DNA of 64,000 nt from Patescibacteria group bacterium (lineage in GTDB: Bacteria > Patescibacteriota > Patescibacteriia > UBA9570), in contig JAJRVJ010000009.1 in NCBI GenBank assembly GCA_024277435.1, positions 1,226-65,225 of the forward strand, read 5' to 3'. Below, piece by piece: positions 16,620 to 42,266 of this stretch (its first letter is position 1; each line of letters begins with the position of its first letter). The translations under genes were made by a program, and so were the position numbers. The notes under the pieces are model-generated. The model was not told the origin of the DNA. It did not search any database and saw only the letters and a list, made by a program, of their open reading frames with translations.

Positions 16620-16646
16620 TCAATACATATTGCCTAAAACAAGTAT

Positions 16647-17600: not shown

Positions 17601-17614
17601 CCCTAAAGGTACAT

Positions 17615-18727: not shown

Positions 18728-18746
18728 CTGATATACTAGTTCTGGT

Positions 18747-19820: not shown

Positions 19821-21704
19821 ATGTGCGGAATAGCCGGCAAACTCTATTTTAACCAAGACAGCAATATTCATTCCGATGAATTAGATTTGATGCTTAACGA
19901 AATTAAGCATCGCGGACCTGATGATCAAGGAATTGAAACATTTGGAAATGTAGCGCTTGGTCAACGCCGTCTTTCTATTATTGATCTATCGCCTGCTGGA
20001 CATAATCCAATGAGTAACGCGGATGGCACTGTGTGGATTACCTTTAACGGTGAAATTTTCAATCATACAGATTATCGTCCTGAATTAGAAAAAAAAGGAT
20101 ACAAATTTAAATCCCAAACCGATACCGAAGTTATCTTGTACCTCTATGAAGAATATGGCGAAGAGTGCTTACAATATTTGCGTGGCTTTTTTGCATTTGC
20201 TATTTGGGATGCGCCAAAGAAAAAATTATTTATCGCTCGTGACCGGGTTGGTAAAAAACCATTAAAATATTATCTTACCGATACACAATTATCATTTGCC
20301 TCAGAACTTAAAGCTATCTTGGCCGACCCTTCCGTTCCACGTGAAGTTGATGAAGAAGCCATCCATCATTACTTAACCTTAGAATACGTTCAGCATCCAC
20401 AAACTGGCTTCAAACATATTAAAAAACTACCACCAGCTCACTACATGGTGGTACAAGATGGCAAAGTAGAAATTAAACGTTACTGGAAACTTGATTACAG
20501 CAAGAAGCTTGATTTACCCGAAGAAGAATGGATTGAACGCATTCAAGATAAATTAAGTGAAGCCACAAAATTACGCCTCATGAGTGATGTACCGCTTGGC
20601 GCCTTTCTTAGTGGTGGGGTAGATTCCAGTGCAGTAGTGGCCATAATGGCTAAACATACTACTGGACGCGTAAAAACCTTTACCATTGGCTTCAATGAAG
20701 CCTCGCATGATGAATCAGACTACGCACGAATGATTGCTGAAAAATTCAATACCGAACATACAGAATTTATTGTTGAACCTAAATCTGTTGAACTATTTCC
20801 AAAATTAGCCTGGCAGTACGAAGAGCCATTTGCCGATCCTTCCGCCATTCCCTCATACTATCTTGCGGAATTAACTCGTAAGCACGTAACTGTTGCCCTT
20901 AACGGTGATGGTGGCGATGAAAATTTTGCTGGCTACGGACGGTACGATTATCACTTACTCGGGAAACGCTATGAAAAAATTCCTCGCTGGATCCGACAAG
21001 GTATTATTGCAAATAGCACATCTATTGCAAGTAAACTGATTAAAACTACATTCTTCGATAGAGCTAACCGCTTTGCGCAATCCGTGGCTGATACACCAGA
21101 ACGCCGCTACTACAATTATATTTGTTATTTCACTACCGAACAGAAAAAAGAAATTTACACTGAAGAGTTTTGGAATAAAATGAAGGATAAAGAAACGCAA
21201 GATATTCTCGCAGAACTTGCACAACATGCTGGCAATGATGACTATCTTGACAAAACACTCTATACAGATTTCAACTCGTATCTACCAAATGCGTTAATGG
21301 CAAAAGTAGATATTGCCACTATGGCACATTCACTTGAGGGGCGCTCGCCGTTACTTGATCACGAATTACTTGAACTCTCTGCACAAATTCCTTCCAACTT
21401 AAAAATAAAAAATGGTGAGAAGAAATATATTCTTAAAAAATCTTTAGAGGGTATTCTTCCAAATGAAATTCTATATCGACCTAAAATGGGTTTTGGCGTT
21501 CCGTTAGTACATTGGTTCCGCGATGAACTAAAAGACTACATGTATGATGTGATCATGAATGGTGAAGCCATTAAGCGGGGATATTTAGATAAAAATAAAG
21601 TGCAGAAATTACTTGATACTCATGCAAATACTAAAGTGGATTACGCTAATCACATCTGGGCACTCATTATGTTAGAACACTGGTTTGCCACTTGGTTTAA
21701 ATAG
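19821..21704 (+). CDS. asnB: Asparagine synthetase (glutamine-hydrolysing), WbpS-like amidotransferase in glycan locus
   Basis: N-terminal MCGIAG nucleophile and a PP-loop SGGVDSS. Confidence 0.88.
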   Translation: MCGIAGKLYFNQDSNIHSDELDLMLNEIKHRGPDDQGIETFGNVALGQRRLSIIDLSPAGHNPMSNADGTVWITFNGEIFNHTDYRPELEKKGYKFKSQTDTEVILYLYEEYGEECLQYLRGFFAFAIWDAPKKKLFIARDRVGKKPLKYYLTDTQLSFASELKAILADPSVPREVDEEAIHHYLTLEYVQHPQTGFKHIKKLPPAHYMVVQDGKVEIKRYWKLDYSKKLDLPEEEWIERIQDKLSEATKLRLMSDVPLGAFLSGGVDSSAVVAIMAKHTTGRVKTFTIGFNEASHDESDYARMIAEKFNTEHTEFIVEPKSVELFPKLAWQYEEPFADPSAIPSYYLAELTRKHVTVALNGDGGDENFAGYGRYDYHLLGKRYEKIPRWIRQGIIANSTSIASKLIKTTFFDRANRFAQSVADTPERRYYNYICYFTTEQKKEIYTEEFWNKMKDKETQDILAELAQHAGNDDYLDKTLYTDFNSYLPNALMAKVDIATMAHSLEGRSPLLDHELLELSAQIPSNLKIKNGEKKYILKKSLEGILPNEILYRPKMGFGVPLVHWFRDELKDYMYDVIMNGEAIKRGYLDKNKVQKLLDTHANTKVDYANHIWALIMLEHWFATWFK

Positions 21705-22821
21705 AATCTGTAACTAATTGAAGAAATTGTTCACTCACCACGGTAATATCGTGGTGAGTTTTTGCATACACGTATGCTTTCTTACTCATTACATCTAATT
21801 GCTGCTCATTATTTGAAACCTGCTGAATAACCTGTATTAATTCTTTATCTGTATCAGCAATTAACCCAAAGTTATGCTTTTGAAGAATATCATCAGGATT
21901 CACCCCGCGTGAAATAATTGGCGTACCGTGTTTTGCGGCCTGAATATACGTATTAGGAAATCCTTCCATACTTGATGTATTCACAAATAGCTTAGCCTTA
22001 GCGAAATATTCATCTATATCATTAAGCGGTACGCTCTCTATAAAATCTACATTCGATAATTTCCCGGCACGTTTACACCACTCTTCATATTGTTGCGGAT
22101 AATTACCAGCCGGCATTATCATAATAAACCGTTCATCAGGCAAAGCTTCTGCTGCATCAAGTAGCCGCTCTGGATGTTTCCATGTTTCGCCTCGGCCAAC
22201 CCATAGCACGCCATCACGTTCATTCATTGGTACTATATCTGTAGGAATTTCATAAGCTGTTGATAATAATGGGCCTTTAATACCATAATTATCCTTTAGC
22301 ATTGTTTGCTGATTGTTATTTTGTAAAATAACCAAAGAAGCATTACGCATACCCCATACTCCTAACTTACCAATGAGGCCTCGTTCCCGTTCAAACTGAC
22401 CAGATACATCCCACTCATGAGCCACCATATACACAAACTTCTTTCTGAATACCTTGCAGTATAGCGCTGCAAACCCTGTTTCTGGACCCATAGCGCGCTG
22501 AATATATATATCTGACTGCGATCTATGAAGTTGCCAAAAAAAACGTACTAGGCCAGTAATATGAGAAAAAATAGGAATAGCTCTACTAATACGCAATGTA
22601 CGTCGTAATTCAATATTCTTATACTGCGATACCTCAGATGATTTGCCTGAAGTTAAAAAAACAACTTTCGGTTTTTTATCTTTGCTAATAGTGGTAGCTA
22701 ATTGATACAACTGCACTTCCGCGCCTCCATACGTAACGCCTTCCGATGGAGCAAATAATCCATAAGCGTAATATGCAATAAAGCAAATTGATTGTTGATT
22801 ATCTTTATTGTTTGACATCAA
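21697..22821 (-). CDS. GT4 glycosyltransferase
   Basis: EGFPNTYIQAAKHGTPIIS C-terminal GT-B motif. Converges with asnB, overlapping it by 8 nt. Confidence 0.75.
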   Translation of the reverse strand: MMSNNKDNQQSICFIAYYAYGLFAPSEGVTYGGAEVQLYQLATTISKDKKPKVVFLTSGKSSEVSQYKNIELRRTLRISRAIPIFSHITGLVRFFWQLHRSQSDIYIQRAMGPETGFAALYCKVFRKKFVYMVAHEWDVSGQFERERGLIGKLGVWGMRNASLVILQNNNQQTMLKDNYGIKGPLLSTAYEIPTDIVPMNERDGVLWVGRGETWKHPERLLDAAEALPDERFIMIMPAGNYPQQYEEWCKRAGKLSNVDFIESVPLNDIDEYFAKAKLFVNTSSMEGFPNTYIQAAKHGTPIISRGVNPDDILQKHNFGLIADTDKELIQVIQQVSNNEQQLDVMSKKAYVYAKTHHDITVVSEQFLQLVTDSI

Positions 22822-25162
22822 ATAACTTTGTTAATACTGATCCGTTACGCGCAAATGAATGATTTTTTAACGCATACATGTACGCATTCTCTACATATGT
22901 TACTACGTCTACATCCTTTTCCATAACACGATGCAAAAGATCAATGAGTGTATTCTCATCACCTTGAGCACACCACCCCATCTTATGCGACTGTAATATA
23001 GTATCAGGATCAACATGCAACGAAATAATAGGGCATCGATGTAACGCTGCTTGCACAAACGTATTTGGAAAACCTTCGCTTTTCGAAGTGTTTATAAATA
23101 CTCGAGCTTGCGCAAAATATTGAGATATATCCTGAAAAGGAACATTAGGAATGTATTGCACATTATCCAGCAAATTAACTTTCTTACGAACCTGTGCAAT
23201 TAACTCTTGATCAACAGTTTCGGCCATGATCATAACATACCGATACTGAGGATACTGCTCTGCTAATCGCAAAAATATTTCCGGCTGTTTTACTGCCGCC
23301 GCACGACCCACCCACAATATAGTATCTCGCTCTGATACTTTCGTACCTTCTAATTTCTTTGTAACAAAATATGAAGAATAAATTAAAGTGCTGGAAATAT
23401 TAGGCATCATTATTTGTAATTGTTTATGCTGATCATCACTCTGTGTGATAACTGCATTAGCCTGCTTCATGCCCCAAAATGCAAATTTCGTTAGCAGATC
23501 ACCTTGCCTCCGATACTTCATATCAACTTCACGATCATGAGCGATCATATAAATAAATTGTTTACGCATTATTTTGCAATATAGTGCGATCATACCTGTT
23601 TCTGGACCAATAGAACGCTGTATAAAGGTAGTTGCGCCACTAAGTTGCATGTGATGCCATAAACGTATCATGGCAGCAATATTAGAAACAACGCCGTACT
23701 TGCGTTGCGAAGAAATGGATTTATGTACAACAACACCATCATATTCTTCAATAGTAAATTTCTTAGCGCCCTGAGTAATAACGTGTACAGAATAACCTTG
23801 TTCAAGTAAATATTTAGACCACAAGTATAGCTGCACCTCAGCCCCGCCATATTTTATACCCGCATTTGAATTATATAACCCATATCCATGGTAGCTGACC
23901 ATACATACATCAGAGCGTTGCTTACACTTTTGCAAATAAGTGCTTATTGTTAATCCAGCAGATAACAGTAGTAGTGGATACAAGGGAATACCATAACGCG
24001 GCACTGCATTAAGAGGCATATAAATGACAATATGATACAAAAAAATAACAGAAAAAACTGTATAAAATATTGAAAATTTCTTAAACTGAAATACCCCAAG
24101 CAACGCCAGTGATAAAATAATAACTTGCACTGTAAAAGCTAAAACTAAAGCTATGCTGGCTATAACATTGGATTGTAATGCCCCCATTATTAATAACGTT
24201 TGCATGCCTTCTGGTTGAAATAAGATTTTTAGAGGCTTTTTTGCGTATACCACCGCAACAGCTAAAGGATCTTCCTTGATATTTTGCAAAGTCATTTCAC
24301 GCAACAACGCCTCCTGTTCATCCACAGTAAGTGATTTATCTTTCACTTCAGATAATGGCCATATATGGCCCTGCCAATCCCCGTCCCATGGAACATAACT
24401 TCCTGTCCAATAAATTGCGCCACCACCCTGTCGCCCAAGCACAAATTCGTCAAATTGTATTGCATTACGAATGAACCACGGGCTCACAACAGCCGCAAAG
24501 ACAATGATAAACACACTGCTATGGACAAAAATAGTTTTTATACTACGTGTCCGTCGCTCTACCAGCCAAATGATACCTACCATAAGTAACGGTAAAAATA
24601 AAGCAGCCGACCGAGTTAATGCTAATAATCCTATAGCCATGCCACTAACAATGAACCATCTTACCGTCTTTTTATCTAATGCCAACAAAAAAAGAAAAAT
24701 ACATAGCACCAACAATGCTGCATATAACGTTTCTGTCATTATCTCACCAGAATAGACTATCACCGCAGGAAACATTCCAAATGAAAATGCAGCAATAATA
24801 CCAGATTGATTTGATAAAAATTTCCTACCAATCCAATATATTCCCACACACGTAACTGCCGCTAATAAAGCCTGAACAATTTGCGGACCAATAATCGAAT
24901 GTCCAAACATTGCATAAAGCGGCGCTAATATAAATAATGAATACCCTGGTTCACGTTCTGCGCTAGGGATGCCTGAGGTAACTGATAAGCCATCCCCCTG
25001 CACAACATTCCAGGCCATAGCGTCAAAAATACTGGAATCATTCCAGTGCAAAGGCGCTATACCTAAAGCAATATATGACAAATGTATCACTGCAATCACT
25101 ACAAAAATTGCAAGCGAGACATATCGTGGCGGCATTGTCGTAAATACTTTTTTTAGATTCAT
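22805..25162 (-). CDS. Fusion protein: N-terminal GT-C (ArnT/PMT-like, GT39/83) membrane glycosyltransferase + C-terminal GT4 domain
   Basis: The N-terminal 400 aa are a paralog of the next two genes (REPGY...FGHS, GEIMTE, YVPWDGDWQGHIWPL). The C-terminus carries ...GGAEVQLY... and EGFPNTFVQAALHRCPIIS like the 21697 GT4. Confidence 0.75.
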   Translation of the reverse strand: MNLKKVFTTMPPRYVSLAIFVVIAVIHLSYIALGIAPLHWNDSSIFDAMAWNVVQGDGLSVTSGIPSAEREPGYSLFILAPLYAMFGHSIIGPQIVQALLAAVTCVGIYWIGRKFLSNQSGIIAAFSFGMFPAVIVYSGEIMTETLYAALLVLCIFLFLLALDKKTVRWFIVSGMAIGLLALTRSAALFLPLLMVGIIWLVERRTRSIKTIFVHSSVFIIVFAAVVSPWFIRNAIQFDEFVLGRQGGGAIYWTGSYVPWDGDWQGHIWPLSEVKDKSLTVDEQEALLREMTLQNIKEDPLAVAVVYAKKPLKILFQPEGMQTLLIMGALQSNVIASIALVLAFTVQVIILSLALLGVFQFKKFSIFYTVFSVIFLYHIVIYMPLNAVPRYGIPLYPLLLLSAGLTISTYLQKCKQRSDVCMVSYHGYGLYNSNAGIKYGGAEVQLYLWSKYLLEQGYSVHVITQGAKKFTIEEYDGVVVHKSISSQRKYGVVSNIAAMIRLWHHMQLSGATTFIQRSIGPETGMIALYCKIMRKQFIYMIAHDREVDMKYRRQGDLLTKFAFWGMKQANAVITQSDDQHKQLQIMMPNISSTLIYSSYFVTKKLEGTKVSERDTILWVGRAAAVKQPEIFLRLAEQYPQYRYVMIMAETVDQELIAQVRKKVNLLDNVQYIPNVPFQDISQYFAQARVFINTSKSEGFPNTFVQAALHRCPIISLHVDPDTILQSHKMGWCAQGDENTLIDLLHRVMEKDVDVVTYVENAYMYALKNHSFARNGSVLTKLFDVKQ

Positions 25163-25164
25163 AC

Positions 25165-26403
25165 TTATGTATGTTTACGATAATTCGTTACAAAGCTAAA
25201 GGTATCAATCACGCCTAAACCACTCAATAACAAAATAAGAGGGTATAATGGCACTGCATAGCGTGGCACTGCATTTAATGGTAAATACACTATCACAAAA
25301 TATATCAGGATACACACTGTAATAATCGCATAATTTCTATACTTCGAAAAACGTAACATACCAATACCGGCTAATACTAGCAACACACAGTGATATACAT
25401 ACAATATAATTGCCATTAACGTCATGAATGTATTATTATTAAAAGCACCGCGCTCTAATGTAAAGTGTAGACCTTCAGGTTGAATAAATATCTTAAGAGG
25501 TTTCTTAAGATATAACCAAGCCACTGTGAGTGGATCCTGCTTAATATTTTCAATAGCTCTATCTATCATTTGAGCATCATGCTCAAAAAAATCTGCACCT
25601 GTCCGATATTCGGTAAGCGGCCATATATACCCTTGCCAGTCACCATCCCACGGAACATAACTTCCTGTCCAAATAATTTCTCCACCACCTGTTCTGCCTA
25701 ATAATACCCTATCAAACATTGTATAATTTCGTACAACCCATGGCGTATATACTGCTAAGCTAATCACACCAATCACTATTCCATACCTAATACTAAATCG
25801 AACATTTCTGGTTATTAATAACAACACTACTGGTACTATACCAATTAATGGTAATGCAGCCATGCGAGTGAGCGCGGCTAAACCGAGTAATACCCCACCT
25901 AATACGAACCATCGTGTCATTTTCTTCTCTACACCTACTAACAGCACATATGTAAACGCCGTTAATAGTAGCATAAACCAAGCTTCAGTCATGATTTCAC
26001 CAACATTCACAATAATAGCTGGATGAAGAGCAAAGATGAGAGCCGCAGCAATGCCCGCATTTTTAGATATAAATCGTTTTCCAATAACAATTAATAATAC
26101 AGCCGTAAAGGCGCTCAATAAAGCTTGAGCTACCTGAGCTGCAAAAATACTATGACCAAAAATCGCATACACTGGAACAAGTACAAAAAATGCATAACCG
26201 GGCTCTCGTAATGCATCTGGAATTCCTGGTGTATATGTAAAGCCATCACCCTGAACAAAATTCCAGGCAGTAGCATCATAAATAGCAGAATCAAACCAAT
26301 TCAATGGAGCATTTGTTAGCGCTACATACAGCAATTGAACGGCCACCACCATTATAAATACACCTATCTCAACTTTATACTTTCTTAATACGCTTATAAA
26401 CAT
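25165..26403 (-). CDS. GT-C (ArnT/PMT-like) membrane glycosyltransferase, paralog 2
   Basis: Polytopic protein with the same conserved loops (DSAIYDATAWNFVQGDG, REPGYAFF, GEIMTEA, YVPWDGDWQGYIWPL). Confidence 0.7.
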   Translation of the reverse strand: MFISVLRKYKVEIGVFIMVVAVQLLYVALTNAPLNWFDSAIYDATAWNFVQGDGFTYTPGIPDALREPGYAFFVLVPVYAIFGHSIFAAQVAQALLSAFTAVLLIVIGKRFISKNAGIAAALIFALHPAIIVNVGEIMTEAWFMLLLTAFTYVLLVGVEKKMTRWFVLGGVLLGLAALTRMAALPLIGIVPVVLLLITRNVRFSIRYGIVIGVISLAVYTPWVVRNYTMFDRVLLGRTGGGEIIWTGSYVPWDGDWQGYIWPLTEYRTGADFFEHDAQMIDRAIENIKQDPLTVAWLYLKKPLKIFIQPEGLHFTLERGAFNNNTFMTLMAIILYVYHCVLLVLAGIGMLRFSKYRNYAIITVCILIYFVIVYLPLNAVPRYAVPLYPLILLLSGLGVIDTFSFVTNYRKHT

Positions 26404-27655
26404 TACTATACATATTATATACTACCGGAGCAGCTGGGATAATCAATAGAGCCATAATGGGAACATTATATCGTGTAACAGGATTTAACGGAACATAAAT
26501 GAGCGCCGCAAATATTAGTACAGATAATAATCCAATACGTACAGTGTGATCCATTTTTTTATTACGTAGTAATCCAAATAATCCAATAAACAATATGAAC
26601 CAATGAAGTAAAATCATACTACCAGTTACTACCCATAATATTGGATTTCTATTCTCCAATAGTGTAGTACCCGTTCGATTTGTGTAGTTTATTGATTCAG
26701 GAAGTAAGTAGATTTTAAATGGCTTTTTGAACCAGATCCAAGCTACGCCTAATGGATTCTCTTTAATATTTTCAATAGCAGCAGCAGTAAATTTCTTATC
26801 ATATTCCTCTCGCGTAAGATCGCCACGAATTTCATCGATAATTGGATCATCTATTCTCCACTCGCCATCAAAAGGAATATAGCTACCAGACCAATATATT
26901 TGTCCGCCACCAATTCTTCCAAAAATAAATTCATCAAACAGCACATAATTACGAACCAGCCATGGCGCTACCACAATACCTACCCCCACCAACAATAAAC
27001 CGCTATACAATATAGTCTTTTTTATATCACGCAATATAGCAAATATTCCTACAATAAGAAAAAAGGGTAGCACTATCGCACCCCAACGAACCAACGCCGT
27101 ATAACCCAACGCTAACCCAACGCTAAATATTAACCAGCGTGACTTACGTTGCAACGCCAAAATAAACAAAAACAATGTTACTAGCAACCAAAACTGATAT
27201 GGAGCTTCAGTCATAATCTCACCATGCTGAAAAATAAACGGCAAGTACAAAACATACAACATGCCTCCAATCAACGCGGTGCGTTCCCCCATATATTTGC
27301 GCAAAAAATACACCACCATTAACATCATTGCAATATCTAATAGCAATTGCACAACAGCAGCCATCTCCACAGAATGACCAAATAATACATATGTAGGGAC
27401 TAATAGAAACAAGGCATATCCTGGTTCACGAAAAGCAAACGCCACCCCTTCTTCATAAACATATCCATTCCCCTCAACTACGTTCCAAGCCGGAATGTCG
27501 TACGCTGGAGAATCTCCACTATACGGCGTTAGTGGTGGATTATAACTAAAAAAATACACCGTGCGAATAATTAACGCACAAAGAACCAAGGCTATTACAC
27601 CAGTTCGGAAAAATACTTTACTATTTAAGGAATTTTTTTCCAATGCGGATTTCAT
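26375..27655 (-). CDS. GT-C (ArnT/PMT-like) membrane glycosyltransferase, paralog 3
   Basis: DSPAYDIPAWNVVEGNG, REPGYALF, GEIMTEAPY, YIPFDGEW. Overlaps paralog 2 by 29 nt. Confidence 0.7.
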   Translation of the reverse strand: MKSALEKNSLNSKVFFRTGVIALVLCALIIRTVYFFSYNPPLTPYSGDSPAYDIPAWNVVEGNGYVYEEGVAFAFREPGYALFLLVPTYVLFGHSVEMAAVVQLLLDIAMMLMVVYFLRKYMGERTALIGGMLYVLYLPFIFQHGEIMTEAPYQFWLLVTLFLFILALQRKSRWLIFSVGLALGYTALVRWGAIVLPFFLIVGIFAILRDIKKTILYSGLLLVGVGIVVAPWLVRNYVLFDEFIFGRIGGGQIYWSGSYIPFDGEWRIDDPIIDEIRGDLTREEYDKKFTAAAIENIKENPLGVAWIWFKKPFKIYLLPESINYTNRTGTTLLENRNPILWVVTGSMILLHWFILFIGLFGLLRNKKMDHTVRIGLLSVLIFAALIYVPLNPVTRYNVPIMALLIIPAAPVVYNMYSNVYKRIKKV

Positions 27656-28325
27656 TCCATAAACACTTTAAAAATGCGATACCTGTTGGAATTGATTTAG
27701 CGTAGCTTTCTCCGCCAATGCGCTCACCTTCGTTAGTAGGAAATTCAATAATATTCTTACCCAATTTCATGCAACGAGTAGTCATTTGATATTCAATAGT
27801 ATACCCAACTGCATCTTGATTGAGCGTTCGAAATAGATCTGTTTTAAAACCACGAAATCCATTAATACTATCCGTTACGTAGTTGCCAGATTTATTGAAA
27901 AATAGATTGATCAACCAATTAAAGGCATTATTAGCCCACTTTCGCATGCGGAAGAATTGCTCATCTTCTTCATTATGAGCCCCCTTCATCATACGTGAGG
28001 CAATTACCAAATCCGCATTATCTTCTTCAAAATATTTTTTGAATTTCTTAATATCTTCAGGATCCTCATTTCCATCTGGGCTATAAATAATCATTACATC
28101 ACCTGTAGCACGCTCTAGAGCAACGCGAAAAGCTTCACCACGACCCTTGCGTGATTTTTGTTCTACTACTTCTACATTATGTTTAGCAAAAAACTCCAGG
28201 GTTCCATCAGTAGAGCCACCATCAACTACAAATGTTTCATCAACTGCGTCCATTGGAATTTTATCCAGCAGTGCAGTAACTCCGTCAATTTCATTATAGG
28301 TAAGAATAACTAGGCTGTATTTCAT
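27621..28325 (-). CDS. GT2 polyprenyl-phosphate sugar synthase (ArnC/DPM-like, soluble type)
   Basis: MKYSLVILTYNE...VVDGGSTDGT...DGNEDP. I chose the internal Met start at 28325, 4 nt after the upstream stop; the ORF could extend to 28394. Confidence 0.75.
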   Translation of the reverse strand: MKYSLVILTYNEIDGVTALLDKIPMDAVDETFVVDGGSTDGTLEFFAKHNVEVVEQKSRKGRGEAFRVALERATGDVMIIYSPDGNEDPEDIKKFKKYFEEDNADLVIASRMMKGAHNEEDEQFFRMRKWANNAFNWLINLFFNKSGNYVTDSINGFRGFKTDLFRTLNQDAVGYTIEYQMTTRCMKLGKNIIEFPTNEGERIGGESYAKSIPTGIAFLKCLWNEIRIGKKFLK

Positions 28326-28329
28326 GATA

Positions 28330-29316
28330 TTAATATGGTAGTGAATTTTTATGTTCTTTATACCACTCGATAGTATTGCGTAAACCATCTTCAAGTGACA
28401 TCTGGGCTTTATAATCTAATTTTTCCGCGGCTTTTGTTATATCACAATGGCGTCGCGGTTGGCCAGTTGGTTTTGATATATCAAATTCAATAGCTGTATC
28501 CACACCCGATAGTTCAACAATTTTCTCTACAAGATCTTTGATAGTAGTTTCTTCATCAGCGCCAATATTTACTACATCACTCTCGGCATATTTTTCACAT
28601 ACCTCAATTAAGCCACGAGCAAAATCTGTTACATACAAGAATGATCGGCTAGCAGAGCCATCACCCCACACTTGCAAAGGATTTTCTCCATCAATTACGC
28701 GTTTAATAAGTGCTGGAATAACATGACTAGATTCTGGATTGAAATTATCGCGCGGACCATAACAATTATATGGGCGAGCAATACCAACCTTCATTCCATA
28801 TTCACGATGATACGCATCTCCAAGAAATTCTTCCATACGCTTTGCCCAACCATAGCCTTCATTGGTAGGTTCTGGGCGATCGCGAAATCCTTCCGCTTCT
28901 GGGGTTGGAATTTCACAATGCCGTGGATACACACAAGCAGAACTTGTTACTAAAAATCGCTCAACTTCTGCATGACGCGCTGCTTCAATGACGTTCATGA
29001 AAATTTGCAAATTATCACGAAAAATTGAACCAGGATGCTTAATGTTATATTCAATACCACCAACATTAGCAGCTAGATTCATCACAATATCTTTACCCGC
29101 GGCAATTTCTTTTGTACGTTGCGCATCGAGTAAATCCGCATACACAATTTCAACATCATTCTTAACATCACCAAGAAATTCTACATAACTTTTTTCTGAA
29201 CGCACAGGAACACTTACGCGCGCACCTCGTTTTACTAACATTTCCACTAAGTGTGAACCAATAAATCCAGCCCCACCTGTAACTAATACCTTTTTCCCGT
29301 CGTAAAAATCTACCAT
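28330..29316 (-). CDS. GDP-L-fucose synthase family epimerase/reductase (Fcl/ColC-like GDP-4-keto-(3,)6-deoxyhexose reductase)
   Basis: GGAGFIGSH, EPTNEGYGWAKR, PYNCYGPRDNFNPESSHVIPALI and KPTGQPRR align with Fcl/ColC. Confidence 0.7.
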   Translation of the reverse strand: MVDFYDGKKVLVTGGAGFIGSHLVEMLVKRGARVSVPVRSEKSYVEFLGDVKNDVEIVYADLLDAQRTKEIAAGKDIVMNLAANVGGIEYNIKHPGSIFRDNLQIFMNVIEAARHAEVERFLVTSSACVYPRHCEIPTPEAEGFRDRPEPTNEGYGWAKRMEEFLGDAYHREYGMKVGIARPYNCYGPRDNFNPESSHVIPALIKRVIDGENPLQVWGDGSASRSFLYVTDFARGLIEVCEKYAESDVVNIGADEETTIKDLVEKIVELSGVDTAIEFDISKPTGQPRRHCDITKAAEKLDYKAQMSLEDGLRNTIEWYKEHKNSLPY

Positions 29317-29319
29317 ATA

Positions 29320-30495
29320 TTATTGATCAAATAAATCAAGTACGCCAGAGATTTCTTCTTCTGTAAGTTCAGGATTATTCCCAAAGTAAAAACCTTGAAC
29401 ATGAATTTTATGAGCATTCTTCAATTCACTAAAATCACCAATACCTAACTTTTTGAAGAATGGTTGCTCTACCATAGAACCACCAACAATTGGACGAATT
29501 TCTACACCATGATCCATCAATAGCTTCGTATAATAATCAAAAATATCTTGATCCTTACAGATAATCGGCATAGCAAAATTTGAAACCACGTCCATATGAT
29601 CCATATTTAACATTTCAAACTTATCACTATGCTTTTCTAAAATTGTCATGAAGCGCTTGAAATTATCCTCTCGCTTCTTTGTAATTTCATCTAAATACTT
29701 AATCTGTACATGCCCTAGGAAACCATTAATTTCTGTGGGACGTAGGTTATATCCAAGCGTATAAAATGTATACCGTGAATAAAATCCATCAATACCATTT
29801 TCTTCACGAATCTTTTTCTGATCAGCTTCCTCTAAATTACGATCCCAACCATGGGATCGTACCATCCGTAACATCATGTCTAACTCTTTATCATCCGTAC
29901 ACACCATACCACCTTCGATAGTAGACATATGATGCCCTACGTACGTAGAGAATGTACTCGCTAATCCGAAGTTACCTAGTTTTTTACCCGCAATTTCAGA
30001 ACCAAGTGATTCGCAATTATCTTCAATAAGAATAATATTATTCTGCTCACAGTACTCAGCAATCTTATCAATATCGGCAGAAAATCCTAAGAGATTAGTC
30101 AAAAATACAGCCTTAAGTGGTGTAGCCTCATGCGCTTCCTGCACATAACGCTTTGAAGCATTTAAATTATCAAGCTCTACTTCCAATGGCCGGATACCAA
30201 TGTTTAACTGAATCATTGGGGTAACATTTGTAACCCATGTTAACGAAGAAAACCCAACCGTATCATCCTTTTGCAGCTTACCCATATTAGCCAAGGCCTG
30301 AATAAGTGCTAAGTTGGCTGAACTACCACTATTATACATAGTGCAATATTTGCGACCTTGATATTTTGCAAAATCTTCTTCAAACTTCTTTACCTCTGCA
30401 CCAATACTTAACTGTTCAGCGCCAGCAATAAAATCAATTAGTTTCTTCTTAGTATCTGCCTCATTATAAAATGTAGATTTGATGAGTTTAATCAT
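29320..30495 (-). CDS. DegT-family PLP enzyme with His replacing the Schiff-base Lys: GDP-4-keto-6-deoxy-D-mannose 3-dehydratase-like (ColD/E1-type)
   Basis: LIEDNCESLGS, TFSTYVGHHMSTIEGG (His at the Lys position), RSHGWDRN and GYNLRPTEINGFLG closely resemble ColD as I recall it. Confidence 0.6.
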   Translation of the reverse strand: MIKLIKSTFYNEADTKKKLIDFIAGAEQLSIGAEVKKFEEDFAKYQGRKYCTMYNSGSSANLALIQALANMGKLQKDDTVGFSSLTWVTNVTPMIQLNIGIRPLEVELDNLNASKRYVQEAHEATPLKAVFLTNLLGFSADIDKIAEYCEQNNIILIEDNCESLGSEIAGKKLGNFGLASTFSTYVGHHMSTIEGGMVCTDDKELDMMLRMVRSHGWDRNLEEADQKKIREENGIDGFYSRYTFYTLGYNLRPTEINGFLGHVQIKYLDEITKKREDNFKRFMTILEKHSDKFEMLNMDHMDVVSNFAMPIICKDQDIFDYYTKLLMDHGVEIRPIVGGSMVEQPFFKKLGIGDFSELKNAHKIHVQGFYFGNNPELTEEEISGVLDLFDQ

Positions 30496-30504
30496 AGGTA
30501 TATG

Positions 30505-31497
30505 TTATACAGTATCTTTAGCAAGATTATAGTTATCTGGCTTCATATCAGCATCCACCATAATTTTTACCAAATCTTTATATTTAGTTTTAGCAACCCA
30601 GCCAAGTTTTTCCTTCGCTTTTGTTGGGTCACCCAATAATAAGTCTACTTCCGATGGTCGCATATACTTCTCGGATACTTCTACATGATCTTCCCAATTC
30701 AATCCGGCGTAACTAAAAGCCGCTTCTACAAATTCTTTTACAGTATGGGTTTCACCAGTGGCTAACACAAAATCATCCGGCTTATCCTGCTGCAACATTC
30801 TCCACATACCTTCAACATAGTCTGGAGCGTATCCCCAATCACGTTTAGCATCTAAGTTACCTAGATATAACTTATCTTGCTCACCACGCTTAATCGCACC
30901 AACAGCCCGCGTAATTTTACGAGTTACAAACGTTTCACCACGGCGTGGAGACTCATGATTAAATAAAATTCCAGAGCAATTATACATATTATAAGATTCT
31001 CGATAGTTTACTGTTATCCAGTGAGCATACAATTTAGCCGCCGCATATGGGCTGCGTGGGTAAAACGGTGTAGTTTCCGATTGTGGCACAGCTTGTACTA
31101 AGCCATACATTTCTGAAGTTGAAGCTTGATAAAATCGGGTATTCTTTAAGCCAGCACTTCGAATAGCATCCAATAACCGTAATGCACCAACTGCAGAAAC
31201 CTGCGCTGTATATTCTGGAACTTCAAAACTTACTTGCACATGACTTTGTGCGCCTAAATTATACACTTCATCAGGCTTAATAGTGTTCATCAATTTTGTT
31301 AACACCGCTGAATCTGCTAAATCACCATAACTCAATTTCAAATCGTCAAAAATATGTAGAATACGACCCGTGTTAAATGAGCTCGAACGACGGATAATGC
31401 CGTGCACTTCGTAACCTTTTTCTAATAACAGTTCCGCAAGATAGGAACCGTCTTGTCCGGTAATACCGGTAATGAATGCTTTTCGTTTATTTGCCAT
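30505..31497 (-). CDS. gmd: GDP-mannose 4,6-dehydratase
   Basis: [46 protein letters not shown]... matches GMD throughout. Confidence 0.9.
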
Positions 31498-32479
31498 AAA
31501 GTAATTCTGCGAGGAAGGCTAAGGACTGTGTTGTTTCCCGAATTTCGGTAAAATCCTTATCTTGAACCTCAAGATTAATAGAGTATTCTTTATCTGGGTT
31601 AGATTCTAAATGATGCAATAATTCACTTAATTCCTGCTGATTTTGCTCACCAGCATTAAGCGCCAGTCCACCAACTGGCATCGAAGCCTTATTCTGCCAT
31701 AAACCCGTAGAATCGGCAAGGTGAATATGGCCGAGTCCAGCCCCTAAATTTTTAACTACCGTGAGATAATCTGGCTGCACCCCATGCTCATAAATACCCA
31801 CTATTTGATCACGTATAGCAATCAATTTAGGATCAATCTTGCCATCACGGGTAATCAGGTAATTCCAGAGCCGGCGCATCATATCATAATGACAAATATC
31901 AAACGTTACATCGATACCAGCTTGAGTGGCTGCTAATAAATCTTGAAATGTTACTAAACAAGGATTAAATCGCATATCATCAGCATTGTCTACTGTATCA
32001 GCAAATAACGGTAATGGCATATTCTCTAAACAAAACCGAATGCCTGGAAATTCATTCTGCAGTTTCTTAATAGAAGCAAATATTTCCTCATACAAAGCAT
32101 CGCGCCATGTATTAGTAGATTGCTCTGACTTCCAATCCCTAAGTAAATACGCTAATTGTGAGTGCACCACAACAATACCTGCGCCAATTTCCTGTGCAAT
32201 TTCGGCAGTAACCCGCATTTTTTCTAAACCAGCTTCCGTGCGCGGATCAAAAGCTGTATGATCACCATCAATTTGCGGAAATGGCACATGCACAGAAATA
32301 ACAGGAAACGAAAACTGCTTAAGATTAGCTACAATCACATCCTTTTTCGTATAATCATCCTCTAATAAAATAAGCTCCCCGCCTAATCGTAATACGCTAG
32401 GAGCCGCTGCAAGCATTGTTTGACGGGCAGCAACATCATGTGCCGCCGCTCCCCGCATGGGGGTAAGAAATCTAATCAT
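31487..32479 (-). CDS. Xylose-isomerase-like TIM-barrel sugar (phosphate) isomerase/epimerase
   Basis: 330-aa AP-endonuclease-2/TIM-barrel family pattern. Substrate unknown. Confidence 0.5.
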
Positions 32480-32490
32480 TGAGCTATGGC

Positions 32491-32847
32491 TTAGCCCTTA
32501 GTAACAAAATAAATACCTAAAATAATAACGCCGGCACCTAGCCATTGCCAACCATTTACTTTTTCTTGCAATACTATCATTGCCAATAAAATACTAAACA
32601 CATACGACATACCCATAATTGGATATGCATAACTTACATTTGCTTTCGATAAAATCACTAACCACAACCCTAGAGAGAAGCCATATAACACGGTACCGCC
32701 TAATATAAAAGGATTAACAGCTGCTTTCAAAAAAAATTGAACTAACTTATCTGGATCCAGTACCCCAACCTTATTTACACCTAATTTCAATACAATTTGT
32801 GCTGTAGCGGTAATAATAGCGTTAAATATAATGAGTCCAAATACCAT
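32491..32847 (-). CDS. Small 4-TM DMT/SMR-like protein, ArnE/ArnF-like lipid-linked sugar flippase subunit
   Basis: 118 aa with four hydrophobic helices and an EamA-like pattern. Adjacent to the GT2 and GT-C genes. Confidence 0.55.
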   Translation of the reverse strand: MVFGLIIFNAIITATAQIVLKLGVNKVGVLDPDKLVQFFLKAAVNPFILGGTVLYGFSLGLWLVILSKANVSYAYPIMGMSYVFSILLAMIVLQEKVNGWQWLGAGVIILGIYFVTKG

Positions 32848-32849
32848 AC

Positions 32850-33806
32850 TTATACTTTGTAGTATCCTTTATACCAAACAATAAAATTATGTAACCCATC
32901 TGCTAGGCTAGTTTGAGGTGAAAAATCCAGTAATTCTTTAGCTTTTGAAATATCAGCATAGGTTTTATGTACATCACCTGGCTGCATAGGAAGCATATTT
33001 TTCTTCGATTCAATTCCTAATTCTTTTTCTAGTGTTTCAATCATATACATTAATTCTTCAGTTTGAGAGTTACCTAAATTGATAATTTCATAGCCAAAAT
33101 CTTTATCAAGTGCAGTTACTATTCCCGCAACAATATCATCAATATATGTGAAGTCACGTTGGTGATCGCCATTATTATAGACATCAATAGTATCACCAGC
33201 TAGCATTTTTTGTGTGAACTTGAAGTACGCCATATCTGGCCGACCCCATGGTCCGTACACGGTAAAGAAACGCAACACAATGCAATTCAAACCATATAAG
33301 TGATGATAGGTGTGAGCGAGTAACTCTCCAGCTTTTTTAGTAGCTGCATATGGAGAAACTGGATGATCTACTGGATCAGTCTCCGAAAAAGGTACCTTCT
33401 CATTACCGCCGTATACAGAAGATGTAGAAGCTAACACAAAATCCTTAACATCAAAATCGCGAGCTAACTCTAATAAGTTCAGAGTGCCGTTTACATTGGC
33501 TTGCTCATATATATATGGATTCTCTAACGATGCCCGTACACCAGCCCTCGCTCCTAAATGACAAATCTTATCAAACGCATGCTGCTCAAAAATCTTCCGT
33601 GTTCCTTCTAAATCTGAAAAATCCTGTTCATAGAATGTAAAGCCATCATAAGGCTCTAAAAAAGCCACGCGATCCCGCTTTAATTGAGTATCATAATAAT
33701 CATTAACATTATCGATGCCAATTACTGTATGTCCAGCCTCTAACAATGCTTTAGCTGTGTGACTGCCAATAAATCCTGCTACTCCGGTTACTAAAATGGT
33801 GCTCAT
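32850..33806 (-). CDS. NAD-dependent nucleotide-sugar epimerase (UDP-glucuronate 4-epimerase-like)
   Basis: TGVAGFIGSH...GIDNVNDYYD..LK..R, a YxxxK catalytic pair and a GalE-like fold. Confidence 0.7.
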   Translation of the reverse strand: MSTILVTGVAGFIGSHTAKALLEAGHTVIGIDNVNDYYDTQLKRDRVAFLEPYDGFTFYEQDFSDLEGTRKIFEQHAFDKICHLGARAGVRASLENPYIYEQANVNGTLNLLELARDFDVKDFVLASTSSVYGGNEKVPFSETDPVDHPVSPYAATKKAGELLAHTYHHLYGLNCIVLRFFTVYGPWGRPDMAYFKFTQKMLAGDTIDVYNNGDHQRDFTYIDDIVAGIVTALDKDFGYEIINLGNSQTEELMYMIETLEKELGIESKKNMLPMQPGDVHKTYADISKAKELLDFSPQTSLADGLHNFIVWYKGYYKV

Positions 33807-33815
33807 AGATAATTT

Positions 33816-35153
33816 ATGTATAATAAAGCTGCTGAACTATATCATATGCATACAAAAGCTTCAACTCACATTATTATCATAATTACCCTAGGTTTTATAT
33901 TGGCAATAATACCTTTTATTCAAAGTAATTGGTTGCCAACCTCACCAGATAGCGCAGGCTTAAGTTGTGCCGCTCAACATCTAACCTCCGCTGGAGAATT
34001 TGCTCAAAACCGAACTCGTGGATTTGATTTTCATTATAACCCATGTTGGACGCAACAAACCTATCCTGGAAACCAAGTGTTCACTGCAGGTATTATCACC
34101 ATCACAGGCGCACCTGCTAGTAGTGTTGTGGTATGGCTAAGCATTCTCACATTCATTGCCATTGCCATTGCCATATATATTGCGGTATGGCTAAGCACAG
34201 ATGAACGCACATTAGCTCTCTGGTCTGGATTAGGGGCTATTACATCATTAGCACTGGCTCGCTCACTATTGCTTACACCGCATAATTTATACGGATATTT
34301 AGGAATCATCCTGATTATTTTAGGAATTGTTATCTGGGAACGATCGCGCCACTGGTTGAGTGTTGTACTTATCATTCTGAGCATAGCTTTCCTAACAGTA
34401 TTTCACGCTTTGTCACTAGCCATTGTAGGCATTAGCCTAGCTCTCTATACTCTTGCATCTACATATAAGAAGCCAAAAATACTACTGATACTTTTTGGCG
34501 TATTACTACTAATTAATATTGGCGTTGCGCTCATCATGTTCGGCACCATAAATCCAATCGTGCCAGTTGAAAGTATTTTGGCAATGTCTATACCAGGTAT
34601 CACAAATCCTTGGTACGACCATCCTGCGGTATGGGGATATATCGCAACTAGTATTGGTGCACTTGGTATTGCCTACCGTATTAGCAGCAAAGATATGCAT
34701 CCTGCATTACATCTTGGTATCTGGATTGGCCTTGTAAGTATTTTTTTTGGTCATCCAGAAATTACACAAATTGAAATACTACCAGAACGCGTAATTGCTT
34801 ATGGATGGATACCTCTTGCAATAGCATTAGGCGATGGCGTGCTTGTAAGTACTGGTTGGCTAAAAGCTAAGTGGAGATACCTACTATCAATACTAATTAT
34901 TGCCGGCATGGCGCTACATTTTAGTATCTTTATTCAAGATAGCTATGAAGGCATTAGTAAGCGTTTTATACCTGATACAGATTTTATAGAAAGTATGCAA
35001 TGGTTAGAAACACAACGCACCGATGATACATTCCTCTTAGCAGTAGGAAATACTATTAACCGGAAAATTACCTATTCTGGATTATGGTATTACGGTGATA
35101 GTGCTTGGTATCCATGGTATCGTTTAAATCATAAAAACATCCACGCATTCTAA
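33816..35153 (+). CDS. Large polytopic membrane protein (paralog of 36805 gene); reading frame continues past an in-frame TAA to 35399
   Basis: More than 10 TM segments. The 81 codons after the TAA at 35151 align with the C-terminal domain of the 36805 paralog (TESAQAAVINYGITHMLV vs TESQIKYIQTWDIKYIAI; IVYENDQYLIYEL vs AIYKSDEFSLYQI). Confidence 0.6.
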   Translation: MYNKAAELYHMHTKASTHIIIIITLGFILAIIPFIQSNWLPTSPDSAGLSCAAQHLTSAGEFAQNRTRGFDFHYNPCWTQQTYPGNQVFTAGIITITGAPASSVVVWLSILTFIAIAIAIYIAVWLSTDERTLALWSGLGAITSLALARSLLLTPHNLYGYLGIILIILGIVIWERSRHWLSVVLIILSIAFLTVFHALSLAIVGISLALYTLASTYKKPKILLILFGVLLLINIGVALIMFGTINPIVPVESILAMSIPGITNPWYDHPAVWGYIATSIGALGIAYRISSKDMHPALHLGIWIGLVSIFFGHPEITQIEILPERVIAYGWIPLAIALGDGVLVSTGWLKAKWRYLLSILIIAGMALHFSIFIQDSYEGISKRFIPDTDFIESMQWLETQRTDDTFLLAVGNTINRKITYSGLWYYGDSAWYPWYRLNHKNIHAF

Positions 35154-35408
35154 ACAGTAGATACCACCTACTTCCCAATCGTTTATCTGGAAGACAATCC
35201 GTTACATCAACGTTTAGTTGATCTATACACAATAGTAACCACACCAGATACAGAGTCTGCTCAGGCTGCAGTTATCAACTATGGAATTACGCATATGTTG
35301 GTATGGAAAAAAGGTCCCGAGGCAAAAATATGGAAGGCTCGATTCTCCAACGAATCAATAGTCTACGAAAACGATCAATATCTGATTTATGAATTATAAG
35401 GCCACACT

Positions 35409-35660
35409 ATGAAACGCTCTCACGCTAAAATTCATATTCCCGACTGGCTACGATATATACTTCTCGCCGCTATTCTTATAGTAACCATAACAACTATTAT
35501 CAGCGCCGCCCTTCCAGATCATTTTACCATACTAGGTGACCCGTATCATCACAGCCTAAACTACGCTCCATCACGTGCCTTATGGCCATGGCTTGGAACC
35601 TGGCTCACTATTCTTATAAGTATCGTGTACGGCATATATGTACGCCACACTAAGCGCTAA
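35409..35660 (+). CDS. Small 2-TM membrane protein, hypothetical
   Basis: 83-aa ORF with two hydrophobic helices. Confidence 0.35.
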   Translation: MKRSHAKIHIPDWLRYILLAAILIVTITTIISAALPDHFTILGDPYHHSLNYAPSRALWPWLGTWLTILISIVYGIYVRHTKR

Positions 35661-35989
35661 TCTTCCTTTTGGAAAGGACTATACCCCCTATACCATACTA
35701 CGCAAATACAAATAACTACTACAACGATATATGTGATTAATGTACCAATGTACGTACTTCCAAGTATACGTGTTGCCATCATCTGCAATATTGGAAAAGT
35801 AACAACAGAAATTAACCAAGCATATAATAAACGCTCTCCCTTTGGAATTGTATTAAATGGCCATATTGCTACTGAAATAATATAGCCAATTCCGAAATAC
35901 ACTACAAAACTGGCAAGTAATACAAACATAATCATACTATGACAGCATAGCGATGGATAGATTGCTTGTAAAGTCAAAATCCGATACAA
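35657..35989 (-). CDS. Small 3-4-TM membrane protein (GtrA-like?), hypothetical
   Basis: 110-aa hydrophobic ORF. Converges with 35409 and overlaps it by 4 nt. Confidence 0.4.
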   Translation of the reverse strand: MYRILTLQAIYPSLCCHSMIMFVLLASFVVYFGIGYIISVAIWPFNTIPKGERLLYAWLISVVTFPILQMMATRILGSTYIGTLITYIVVVVICICVVWYRGYSPFQKED

Positions 35990-36001
35990 TCAAAATGTTT
36001 T

Positions 36002-36808
36002 ATGAAAAAATACATTACTAATTCTGTCGGATATACAATTGTAGCGCTGCTTGGTTTAGCTCCAATACTACTGTTACTAGCTATATATTCACCATATCCC
36101 GGAATTATCTACATGCGACAAACATTTCGACCAAGCCCTGCTGCACAAAAGCTAGGTGTAAGTAATTTTTTTCCAGACTCCTCGTTATCTCCCGGAATAA
36201 ACCCAATTGAAAATTACCAAATACGTACCATTAATGATGCGGTTGACTTCACCGTAAAAAAAATACCCCGCACCACTTCTGCGGTAATGTACATTAATAT
36301 GAAGCAAAATGCAGCCGCTAGCGCATTACTGCACATAAGCGACACTGGTGGAGATGTCTCATATCGACTACTTGGAGCTGATGATTTTATTTCAAGTCTA
36401 CTAAAAAATGAAGACTATACGTACATTCAAGACCCTGAAACAGATATTACACTCTTCCAAAAAAAGACAAGTGCGTATTCTAGTATAAAAGAATTTATGA
36501 GTAATCCGCCGCGTAGTACCATTGGCCTTTACTATCCCCCATCGGATCAGCTAGACTCTTTTATTGAAAAAATACATACCACGCCACTTCACGCGAAAAA
36601 AAATAAACTAGCAAACGGTAATATCACTCTACCTAACTATATCATTACTTCCTGGCAAAATATCAACAATGATGAATTTGTTGAATATGAATTAAACTGG
36701 AATATGAACGCCCTTGCCATTGAACGGCAAGATTACTTTGCGTTTCGATTACGACCAAGTAGTGAGTATCCCATTACTATCAAACCAATTATCGTAGGAA
36801 TGCAATGA
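36002..36808 (+). CDS. N-terminally anchored hypothetical protein
   Basis: One N-terminal TM segment. Its stop overlaps the next gene's start as ATGA. Confidence 0.5.
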   Translation: MKKYITNSVGYTIVALLGLAPILLLLAIYSPYPGIIYMRQTFRPSPAAQKLGVSNFFPDSSLSPGINPIENYQIRTINDAVDFTVKKIPRTTSAVMYINMKQNAAASALLHISDTGGDVSYRLLGADDFISSLLKNEDYTYIQDPETDITLFQKKTSAYSSIKEFMSNPPRSTIGLYYPPSDQLDSFIEKIHTTPLHAKKNKLANGNITLPNYIITSWQNINNDEFVEYELNWNMNALAIERQDYFAFRLRPSSEYPITIKPIIVGMQ

Positions 36809-42200: not shown

Positions 42201-42266
42201 AGTGAGTGTAGCGGCAATATACACTACAGTCAACGTACATATAAAGCTATGTGCTATACTGGGACT

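Follow-up and report, generated by a model that had tools for sequence, protein, structure and literature searches.

A Patescibacteria operon predicted to make a GDP-3,6-dideoxyhexose and to deliver it through a lipid carrier and GT-C enzymes

Introduction

3,6-Dideoxyhexoses are best known from the O-antigens of Gram-negative bacteria. Here we analyse 64,000 nucleotides of contig JAJRVJ010000009.1 from an uncultivated Patescibacteria bacterium, a member of the candidate phyla radiation (CPR); this whole stretch is called the window below, and all coordinates refer to it. A preliminary description, made from the sequence alone, had noticed genes for a GDP-mannose 4,6-dehydratase (GMD), a DegT-family 3-dehydratase resembling ColD and a reductase resembling Fcl or ColC, and had predicted a pathway of the GDP-colitose type. 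All three open reading frames (ORFs) are present on the minus strand at 28330-31497, in the middle of a probable eleven-gene operon. With a probability of roughly 0.6, we read this operon as making a GDP-3,6-dideoxyhexose, most likely GDP-colitose, and as delivering the sugar through a lipid carrier and membrane glycosyltransferases of the GT-C type.

The biosynthetic genes and their operon

Eleven ORFs follow one another on the minus strand from 33806 to 21697, separated by gaps of 2-11 nt or overlapping by 11-35 nt. This block is probably one operon, with gmd and the ColD-like gene co-transcribed. The intergenic gaps within the gmd, ColD-like and reductase triad are 9 and 3 nt.

30505..31497, minus strand: GMD, 330 aa (TIGR01472 equivalog)
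29320..30495, minus strand: predicted ColD-type 3-dehydratase, DegT fold, 391 aa (PF01041, 198 bits)
29932..29934, minus strand: codon of His188, in place of the Schiff-base lysine of pyridoxal phosphate (PLP) enzymes (from the translation and alignment to ColD mutant chains)
28330..29316, minus strand: extended short-chain dehydrogenase/reductase (SDR) of the Fcl family, here named FclL, 328 aa (NF047922, 221.6 bits)

Operon synteny is complete in two relatives, which we call L003 and L013 (71-81% identity). L013 is a Candidatus Kerfeldbacteria metagenome-assembled genome (MAG), and no other named genome is nearly syntenic; in the databases, the proteins have their closest relatives in Patescibacteria. 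Between L013 and the window the ColD-like proteins are 71% identical, and values across the block range from 43% (a glycosyltransferase of family GT4) to 81% (GMD).

By profile score and identity, the first enzyme of the triad is a bona fide GDP-mannose 4,6-dehydratase, as previously described. It reaches 535.8 bits against the TIGR01472 equivalog (cutoff 415), with profile positions 2-340 of 342 aligned, and 478 bits against PF16363, and it is 59-61% identical to E. coli Gmd proteins.

The DegT-family protein is predicted to be a ColD-type 3-dehydratase

Histidine in place of the Schiff-base lysine separates the 3-dehydratases of this fold from aminotransferases, and the lack of a four-cysteine [2Fe-2S] motif sets ColD apart from E1 and SpnQ (review of nucleotide-sugar dehydratases, PMC8987622). 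The window protein was claimed to have this histidine, and the alignments agree. Within the peptide TFSTYVGHHMSTIEGG, encoded at 29955-29908 on the minus strand, the first histidine of 'GHH' aligns with His188 of E. coli ColD (phmmer alignment to 2gms). The ColD chains H188K (2r0t), H188N (3b8x) and S187N/H188K (3gr9) differ at exactly this column, where all of the 120 best database homologues also carry histidine. The cysteine-rich segment of E1, 'GRDCYCAPGCDNTC', corresponds to a gap in the window protein; its absence, which the preliminary description had left to be checked, extends to the 120 homologues, none of which has a cysteine in the HGW...YNLR loop that binds the cluster in E1.

Searches of the PDB by sequence place E. 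coli ColD first (E=9e-55, 189 bits), followed by E1 (8e-39, 137 bits), a putative NDP-hexose 3-dehydratase (2e-35) and perosamine synthases (about 1e-23, 86 bits). When an AlphaFold2 (AF2) model of the protein (pLDDT 82) was compared with known structures by Foldseek, the top 12 matches were all ColD chains (TM score 0.83-0.85), followed by E1. A neighbour-joining tree rooted on E1, without bootstrap and with a single ColD, makes E. coli ColD the sister of the whole clade from CPR bacteria and DPANN archaea; the window protein falls in a basal grade whose members usually have an adjacent GMD gene. Arg219 and Arg334 of the window protein are invariant, and we take them to be the counterparts of the ColD diphosphate ligands Arg219 and Arg331. 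We predict that this protein is a ColD-type, pyridoxamine phosphate (PMP)-dependent GDP-4-keto-6-deoxymannose 3-dehydratase with His188 as the proposed catalytic acid/base. The earlier preference for ColD over an aminotransferase is thus sustained: no lysine aligns at the Schiff-base position, and the best hits are not GDP-perosamine synthases.

Two other assignments, both of which we consider highly improbable, would make the protein an iron-sulphur- and reductase-dependent 3-dehydratase of the E1/SpnQ type, with a CDP- or dTDP-sugar as substrate, or an aminotransferase, for example GDP-perosamine synthase. The top NCBIfam model is indeed RfbH (E1), at 207.8 bits, some database homologues are named 'CDP-6-deoxy-D-xylo-4-hexulose-3-dehydrase', and many members of the clade lack a neighbouring GMD. 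However, the RfbH score lies far under the cutoff of 423, and genuine E. coli ColD shows the same pattern, with 263 bits. The E1/SpnQ-type reading was rejected because the Fe-S motif is missing and no E3-like reductase gene occurs among the ORFs scanned in the surrounding glycan island, and the aminotransferase or perosamine-synthase reading because the catalytic lysine of transamination is absent, replaced by histidine. The GMD gene, moreover, is adjacent and probably co-transcribed.

The reductase keeps Fcl-like residues

The third enzyme had been described as an Fcl/ColC-like reductase, and its family holds. Its top PDB matches are GDP-L-fucose synthases (E=1.5e-49), then GDP-mannose 3,5-epimerases, and its best NCBIfam match is also a GDP-L-fucose synthase model (NF047922). 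The window protein keeps Ser107/Tyr136/Lys140 and Cys109/His179, presumably the catalytic triad and the epimerisation pair, respectively, as in E. coli GMER. Among 46 FclL-type relatives, Ser/Thr, Tyr, Lys and His are found at these positions in all 46 and Cys in 44. We predict that the enzyme is an NADPH-dependent C5-epimerase/C4-reductase. Orthology to ColC, on the other hand, did not hold: the reductase shares 29% identity with ColC and 33% with Fcl, two proteins that are 39% identical to each other (the reference ColC, ColD and Fcl are those of E. coli O55 strain CB9615), and the N-terminal Rossmann segment of the FclL subfamily is longer and GalE-like. As baselines for NF047922, E. coli Fcl scores 551 bits, a canonical Fcl from CPR 465 and E. 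coli ColC 304; no ColC-specific NCBIfam model was among the matches of E. coli ColC.

The triad could make a different GDP-3,6-dideoxyhexose, the D-arabino (tyvelose-configured) or the L-ribo isomer, if FclL differed from ColC in C5 epimerisation or in the face of C4 reduction. The low identities and the separate subfamily with its GalE-like N-terminus favour such an isomer. In addition, a canonical Fcl, with 46-55% identity to the E. coli enzyme, is the reductase in other gmd-colD loci of CPR and DPANN, so the two types of reductase need not be isofunctional. Set against this are the conservation of Cys109/His179 and of the Ser/Tyr/Lys triad across FclL, and the gene order: FclL and Fcl occupy the same slot in homologous modules, between the dehydratase genes and a gene for a family 2 glycosyltransferase (GT2), and this shared position suggests equivalent roles. 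We consider a different isomer unlikely and retain colitose as the preferred product.

Downstream genes suggest delivery by a lipid-phosphate route

Five further genes of the operon bear on how the sugar might be used.

27621..28322, minus strand: soluble GT2 of the polyprenyl-phosphate glycosyltransferase type, about 233 aa (PF00535, 69 bits)
32491..32847, minus strand: small EamA-type membrane protein, candidate flippase, 118 aa (PF00892, 37.7 bits)
26375..27655, minus strand: GT-C membrane glycosyltransferase 1, PMT_2/ArnT-like (PF13231, 37.4 bits, cutoff 26.1)
25165..26403, minus strand: GT-C membrane glycosyltransferase 2, paralogue of GT-C 1 (from its L013/L003 counterparts)
22805..25162, minus strand: GT-C (PMT_2) enzyme fused to a C-terminal GT4, 785 aa (PF13231; PF13692/PF00534)

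The mechanically called start of the GT2 ORF is a TTG at 28394; homologues begin at the ATG at 28322. A profile built from the GT2 and three homologues matches dolichyl-phosphate-mannose (Dol-P-Man) synthase of P. furiosus (PfDPMS) best in the PDB (6e-20), then GtrB and ArnC. In PfDPMS, Asp91 binds the metal, Arg117 and Arg131 the acceptor phosphate and Asp39 the guanine, while Asp89, His94 and Lys178 contact the 2-OH, 3-OH and O4 of mannose, respectively (PMC5526996). Glu12, the metal ligand Asp91, Arg117, Arg131 and the A-loop Arg202 of PfDPMS are all kept in the GT2. The sugar contacts are changed (Asp89 to Ser, His94 to Glu, Lys178 to Thr/Gly), which argues against plain mannose as the donor sugar. 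We propose that the GT2 is a lipid-phosphate-dideoxyhexose synthase.

The EamA-type protein gives ArnF (43.7 bits, cutoff 99) and ArnE (35.6 bits, cutoff 92) as its leading NCBIfam matches, both sub-cutoff. Its gene is syntenic in L003 and L013, and in a further locus (L095) the ORF after the GT2 homologue likewise encodes a small EamA protein; we regard the protein as a candidate ArnE/ArnF-like flippase for a lipid-phosphate-linked sugar. GT-C 1 is 47% identical to its syntenic homologue in L013, and the same L013 protein matches GT-C 2 at 34%; in L003, a 418-aa protein at the GT-C 2 position carries PF13231 (PMT_2). The fusion protein matches PF13231 over residues 75-229 (51.4 bits) and PF13692/PF00534 over residues 608-750. 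PMT_2 is therefore above its gathering cutoff in two window proteins (37.4 and 51.4 bits), and the third is assigned as a paralogue.

We examined the neighbourhood of the GT2 in a metagenome scan anchored on this gene, in which the 80 best loci (50-64% identity) were retained and the 33 with at least 3.5 kb upstream were counted. An Fcl or FclL gene is present in 32 of the 33, a His-type DegT gene in 29 and GMD in 13, and no locus of the 33 has a Lys-type DegT only. The reductase commonly directly precedes GT2. The ORF after GT2 encodes a protein of 7-12 transmembrane segments that matches PMT_2 at E<=0.01 in seven of the nine cases tested, five of them above the Pfam gathering score. GMD, ColD-like, Fcl and GT2 genes stand in direct succession in two archaeal loci, L042 and L069. 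Three clades of His-type DegT proteins occur near GT2 (the CPR ColD-like clade, one with the motif YFSHH that lies nearer to E. coli ColD, and one leaning towards E1), so the association is with 3-deoxygenation itself and not with one gene lineage. This conserved neighbourhood suggests a three-component system that would use a lipid-phosphate-linked dideoxyhexose. With its GT2, small flippase candidate and GT-C proteins, the operon has the 'three-component' architecture of periplasmic glycosylation (PMC11127046).

Members of the third DegT clade (L103, L104, L107, L109, L144, L154, L169) have motifs such as YIAHLLT and YIAHNIQ, share 26-28% identity with the window protein and are slightly nearer to E1, some with a CxC..C pattern. 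They travel with the same FclL-GT2-GT-C module, and no characterised enzyme matched them.

A competing possibility is that the GT2, the ArnE/F-like protein and the GT-C enzymes handle another sugar, either mannose from GDP-Man, as in DPMS/PMT systems, or a uronic acid from the SDR encoded upstream, as in the Rgt system of Rhizobium, and that the dideoxyhexose goes to cytoplasmic GT4s. The closest solved relative of the GT2 is a GDP-Man-dependent Dol-P-Man synthase, the GT-C proteins match a Pfam family named for Dol-P-Man protein mannosyltransferases, and GT4 genes and an extra SDR gene lie within the operon. Yet all three PfDPMS contacts to mannose 2-OH, 3-OH and O4 are replaced (PMC5526996), and the GT2 rarely occurs without an Fcl-type reductase or a His-type DegT in the counts given above. 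The upstream SDR is absent beside the GT2 family outside the window's own lineage, with the sole exception of L156, and because it does not travel with that family, the Rgt-like uronic-acid version is disfavoured. We judge a role for these proteins with another sugar to be improbable and continue with the dideoxyhexose as their proposed substrate.

Proposed pathway and its weighing

A genuine GMD, a DegT protein with the ColD-type histidine and no Fe-S motif, and a reductase with Fcl-like residues make synthesis of a GDP-3,6-dideoxyhexose, likeliest GDP-L-colitose, the best reading of the triad. That the product is a GDP-3,6-dideoxyhexose of some kind is quite probable; that it is L-colitose is somewhat favoured. 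GDP is taken as the nucleotide of steps 2 and 3 because the GMD gene is adjacent.

In step 1, GMD would act on GDP-mannose. For step 2 we infer, by homology to ColD, that a PMP-sugar Schiff base forms on the enzyme, that His188 removes the C4' proton and that the 3-OH leaves. Hydrolysis would then yield GDP-4-keto-3,6-dideoxy-D-mannose and ammonia, and L-glutamate would regenerate PMP, so that neither an Fe-S cluster nor an E3 reductase would be needed. In step 3, the Fcl-like SDR would epimerise C5 through its Cys/His pair and reduce C4 with NADPH to give a GDP-3,6-dideoxy-L-hexose, likeliest GDP-L-colitose. Delivery, which we propose from homology and the strongly conserved gene neighbourhood, would start with transfer of the dideoxyhexose onto polyprenyl phosphate by the DPMS-like GT2. 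Once linked to the lipid, the sugar would be flipped across the membrane by the ArnE/F-like protein and attached by the three GT-C (PMT_2) enzymes to a surface acceptor, which may be a glycan, a protein or a lipid. We give delivery through such a lipid-phosphate intermediate close to an even chance.

Several observations weigh against this account. BLAST identity between the ColD-like protein and E. coli O55 ColD is just 32%, Ser187 of ColD is replaced by Gly, and the AF2 model has low confidence in the loops around the active site. The reductase scores 221.6 bits against NF047922, below the cutoff of 500; given this score and its 29% identity to ColC, it is, by sequence comparison, neither an Fcl equivalog nor a ColC orthologue and represents a separate subfamily. 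As the reductase is not a ColC orthologue, the C4/C5 stereochemistry, and hence the name colitose, is something that we infer only. The GT2 falls below every specific NCBIfam cutoff (AglJ, 94.7 bits against 325), and the guanine-binding Asp39 of PfDPMS is Gly in it. Within the 64-kb window there is no gene for a mannose-1-phosphate guanylyltransferase, only one for a phosphoglucomutase/phosphomannomutase (PGM/PMM). Among the best 80 loci with relatives of the ColD-like gene (see below), only about one quarter have GMD within 10 kb, and in many crown-group loci the ColD-like and FclL genes are accompanied by 4,6-dehydratase-like SDRs for which no curated model fits. With about three quarters of the loci lacking a nearby GMD, a GDP-linked substrate is presumptive for the clade as a whole.

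Distribution of the ColD-like gene and the triad

Scanning a single genome per species yielded at least 582 relatives of the ColD-like gene, of which we analysed the best 80 (52-71% identity). Nearly all of these are from Patescibacteria or DPANN archaea, with one from Chitinophaga. The predicted sugar had been thought unusual for the lineage; with ColD-like genes so widespread in Patescibacteria and DPANN, this part of the preliminary description does not stand. Throughout, the neighbours of the ColD-like genes are SDRs, GT4s, GT2s and aminotransferases, as in glycan clusters.

GMD, ColD-like and canonical Fcl genes occur together in eight CPR/DPANN genomes (L085, L063, L083, L090, L091, L042, L069 and L092), the Fcl proteins being those with 46-55% identity to E. 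coli Fcl. Given these loci of the basal grade, the classical triad recurs independently in CPR/DPANN. When ColD-like proteins with and without an adjacent GMD gene were compared, no alignment column separated them and two did so weakly; the comparison thus gives no hint of a switch in specificity and neither supports nor excludes a change of nucleotide. We put forward, tentatively and at slightly less than even odds, a widespread and undescribed Patescibacteria/DPANN module in which a GDP-derived, colitose-type 3,6-dideoxyhexose is turned by a dedicated DPMS-like synthase into a polyprenyl- or dolichyl-phosphate donor and attached to the cell surface by GT-C enzymes outside the membrane, with no direct Leloir use.

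At L058 (9031-13202), L018, L048 and L061, 4,6-dehydratase-like SDRs flank the ColD-like and FclL genes; the models for dTDP- and CDP-glucose dehydratase give them similar scores, far short of the cutoffs. One MAG of an uncultured archaeon (L069:4547-6904) encodes GMD and the ColD-like protein in a single uninterrupted frame of 786 codons, so that steps 1 and 2 may have fused naturally into one gene; a GT-C-like gene lies immediately upstream. ColD-like genes of 55-60% identity also lie in CPR-style glycan clusters of MAGs (L016, L018, L022, L026, L027, L036 and others) titled 'uncultured Gammaproteobacteria bacterium' (TPA), taxonomic labels that look doubtful.

Comparison with known systems

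The colitose pathway of E. coli O55/O111 and Yersinia pseudotuberculosis (Gmd, ColD/WbdK, ColC/WbdJ) uses the same three protein families and the same reaction logic. The window differs in its divergent ColD-like protein (32% identity, Gly for Ser187) and in the separate subfamily of its reductase. The gene order had been called exactly that of the colitose pathway. This is correct for the order of the biochemical steps but not for the genes of E. coli O55, which are split, with gmd between galF and gnd and colC-colD beyond gnd, whereas the triad of the window is contiguous. In E. coli O55:H7 CB9615 (NC_013941.1, 2553701-2555787), the colC-colD pair sits in the gnd-ugd interval beside a degraded ISAs1 transposase. 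The NCBI annotation pipeline (PGAP) names these two genes 'GDP-L-fucose synthase family protein' and 'DegT/DnrJ/EryC1/StrS family aminotransferase'.

The hosts also differ, a CPR bacterium here and enterobacteria for the known pathway; CPR bacteria are generally held to lack lipopolysaccharide. In the known pathway, cytoplasmic Leloir transferases transfer colitose from GDP-colitose. This direct use contrasts with the lipid-phosphate route predicted for the window. E1 (RfbH/DdhC/AscC) and, by prediction, the window protein are both PMP-dependent 3-dehydratases of the DegT fold, with His for Lys; E1, however, has a cysteine-rich [2Fe-2S] motif and requires E3 (PMC8987622), whereas the window protein has a gap at the motif. 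The neighbouring dehydratase is a GDP-specific GMD in the window and a CDP-glucose dehydratase in the E1 pathway.

The combination of a polyprenyl-phosphate GT2, a small flippase candidate and a GT-C enzyme is shared with GtrB/GtrA/Gtr*, ArnC/ArnEF/ArnT and DPMS/PMT, for which the three-component glycosylation framework has been described (PMC11127046). Unlike those systems, the window has a GT2 with no transmembrane segment, three GT-C paralogues (one fused to a GT4), sugar-synthesis genes in the same operon and a predicted donor that is a GDP-derived 3,6-dideoxyhexose; the GT2 motif is SPDGNE, against DADLQH in PfDPMS. The literature that we searched holds no report of lipid-phosphate-linked colitose or of its transfer by a lipid-phosphate/GT-C route, and no paper linking colitose with CPR/DPANN. 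As proposed here, the chemistry follows the colitose pathway of enterobacteria, and the delivery is of a known three-component class with an unreported type of donor.

The proposal names a concrete sugar, a 3,6-dideoxyhexose, and a lipid-phosphate/GT-C delivery route, both of which are testable, and the soluble set of GMD, ColD-like protein, FclL and GT2 is assayable without culturing the organism. If it is correct, the operon would supply the first case of a dideoxyhexose donor linked to a lipid phosphate, widen the range of donors known for three-component glycosylation systems and reveal a second, non-orthologous reductase family for colitose-type sugars. The sugar could then be a signature surface decoration of these ultra-small episymbiotic cells and might serve as a marker of their surface or as a target for lectins.

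Remaining operon genes and the surrounding locus

The other three genes of the operon are as follows.

32850..33806, minus strand: extended SDR epimerase/dehydratase, first gene of the operon, 318 aa (PF01370, 211 bits)
31487..32479, minus strand: xylose-isomerase-like TIM-barrel protein, 330 aa (PF01261, 42.5 bits)
21697..22821, minus strand: GT4 glycosyltransferase, last gene of the co-directional block (weak NCBIfam GT4 matches only)

The SDR has GalE as its top NCBIfam model (180 bits, under the cutoff of 262) and is 64% identical to its counterparts in the syntenic loci L003 and L013, in which the last-gene GT4 has syntenic counterparts of 43% identity. The TIM-barrel gene has the flippase candidate on one side and gmd on the other, and it shares 11 nt with the start of gmd. 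About ten homologues of its product were found, all from one narrow lineage, several of them on contigs equal in length to those that carry the closest ColD-like homologues. The protein has no sequence match in the PDB; Foldseek, given its AF2 model (pLDDT 86), returned only generic TIM-barrel epimerases, isomerases and EndoIV, at a TM score of about 0.55. One guess at its role is a sugar epimerase or isomerase.

G+C content is about 38% over the whole window, and the operon shows no compositional break. Scans of the window for tRNA genes and Rfam families found no feature. A scan for promoter and terminator consensus sequences found sites fewer than, or no more than, in shuffled sequence and was thus unable to delimit the operon.

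A glycan-synthesis island of about 26 kb encloses the operon (flanks at 15942-19814 and 33816-42272) and also holds a methyltransferase, a GT2 and two GT4s; its ORFs at 33816-35153, 36002-36808 and 36805-38733 have no Pfam or NCBIfam match. These surrounding genes could build the acceptor glycan. Further features of the island and the window are listed here.

38722-40680: GT2-GT4 fusion, in the island
40677-42272: Wzx-type flippase, in the island
19821-21704, plus strand: AsnB-type amidotransferase, 627 aa, converging on the 3' end of the operon (conserved, 71-72% identity in the syntenic loci)
59293-63882, minus strand: 1529-aa ORF at the window edge

The AsnB-type protein may amidate a uronic acid in the same glycan. 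AsnB-like genes also occur near ColD-like or GT2 genes in five other loci (L064, L070, L084, L092, L151). After the amidotransferase stop codon, a 12-bp GC-rich hairpin is followed by a T-run (21733-21759).

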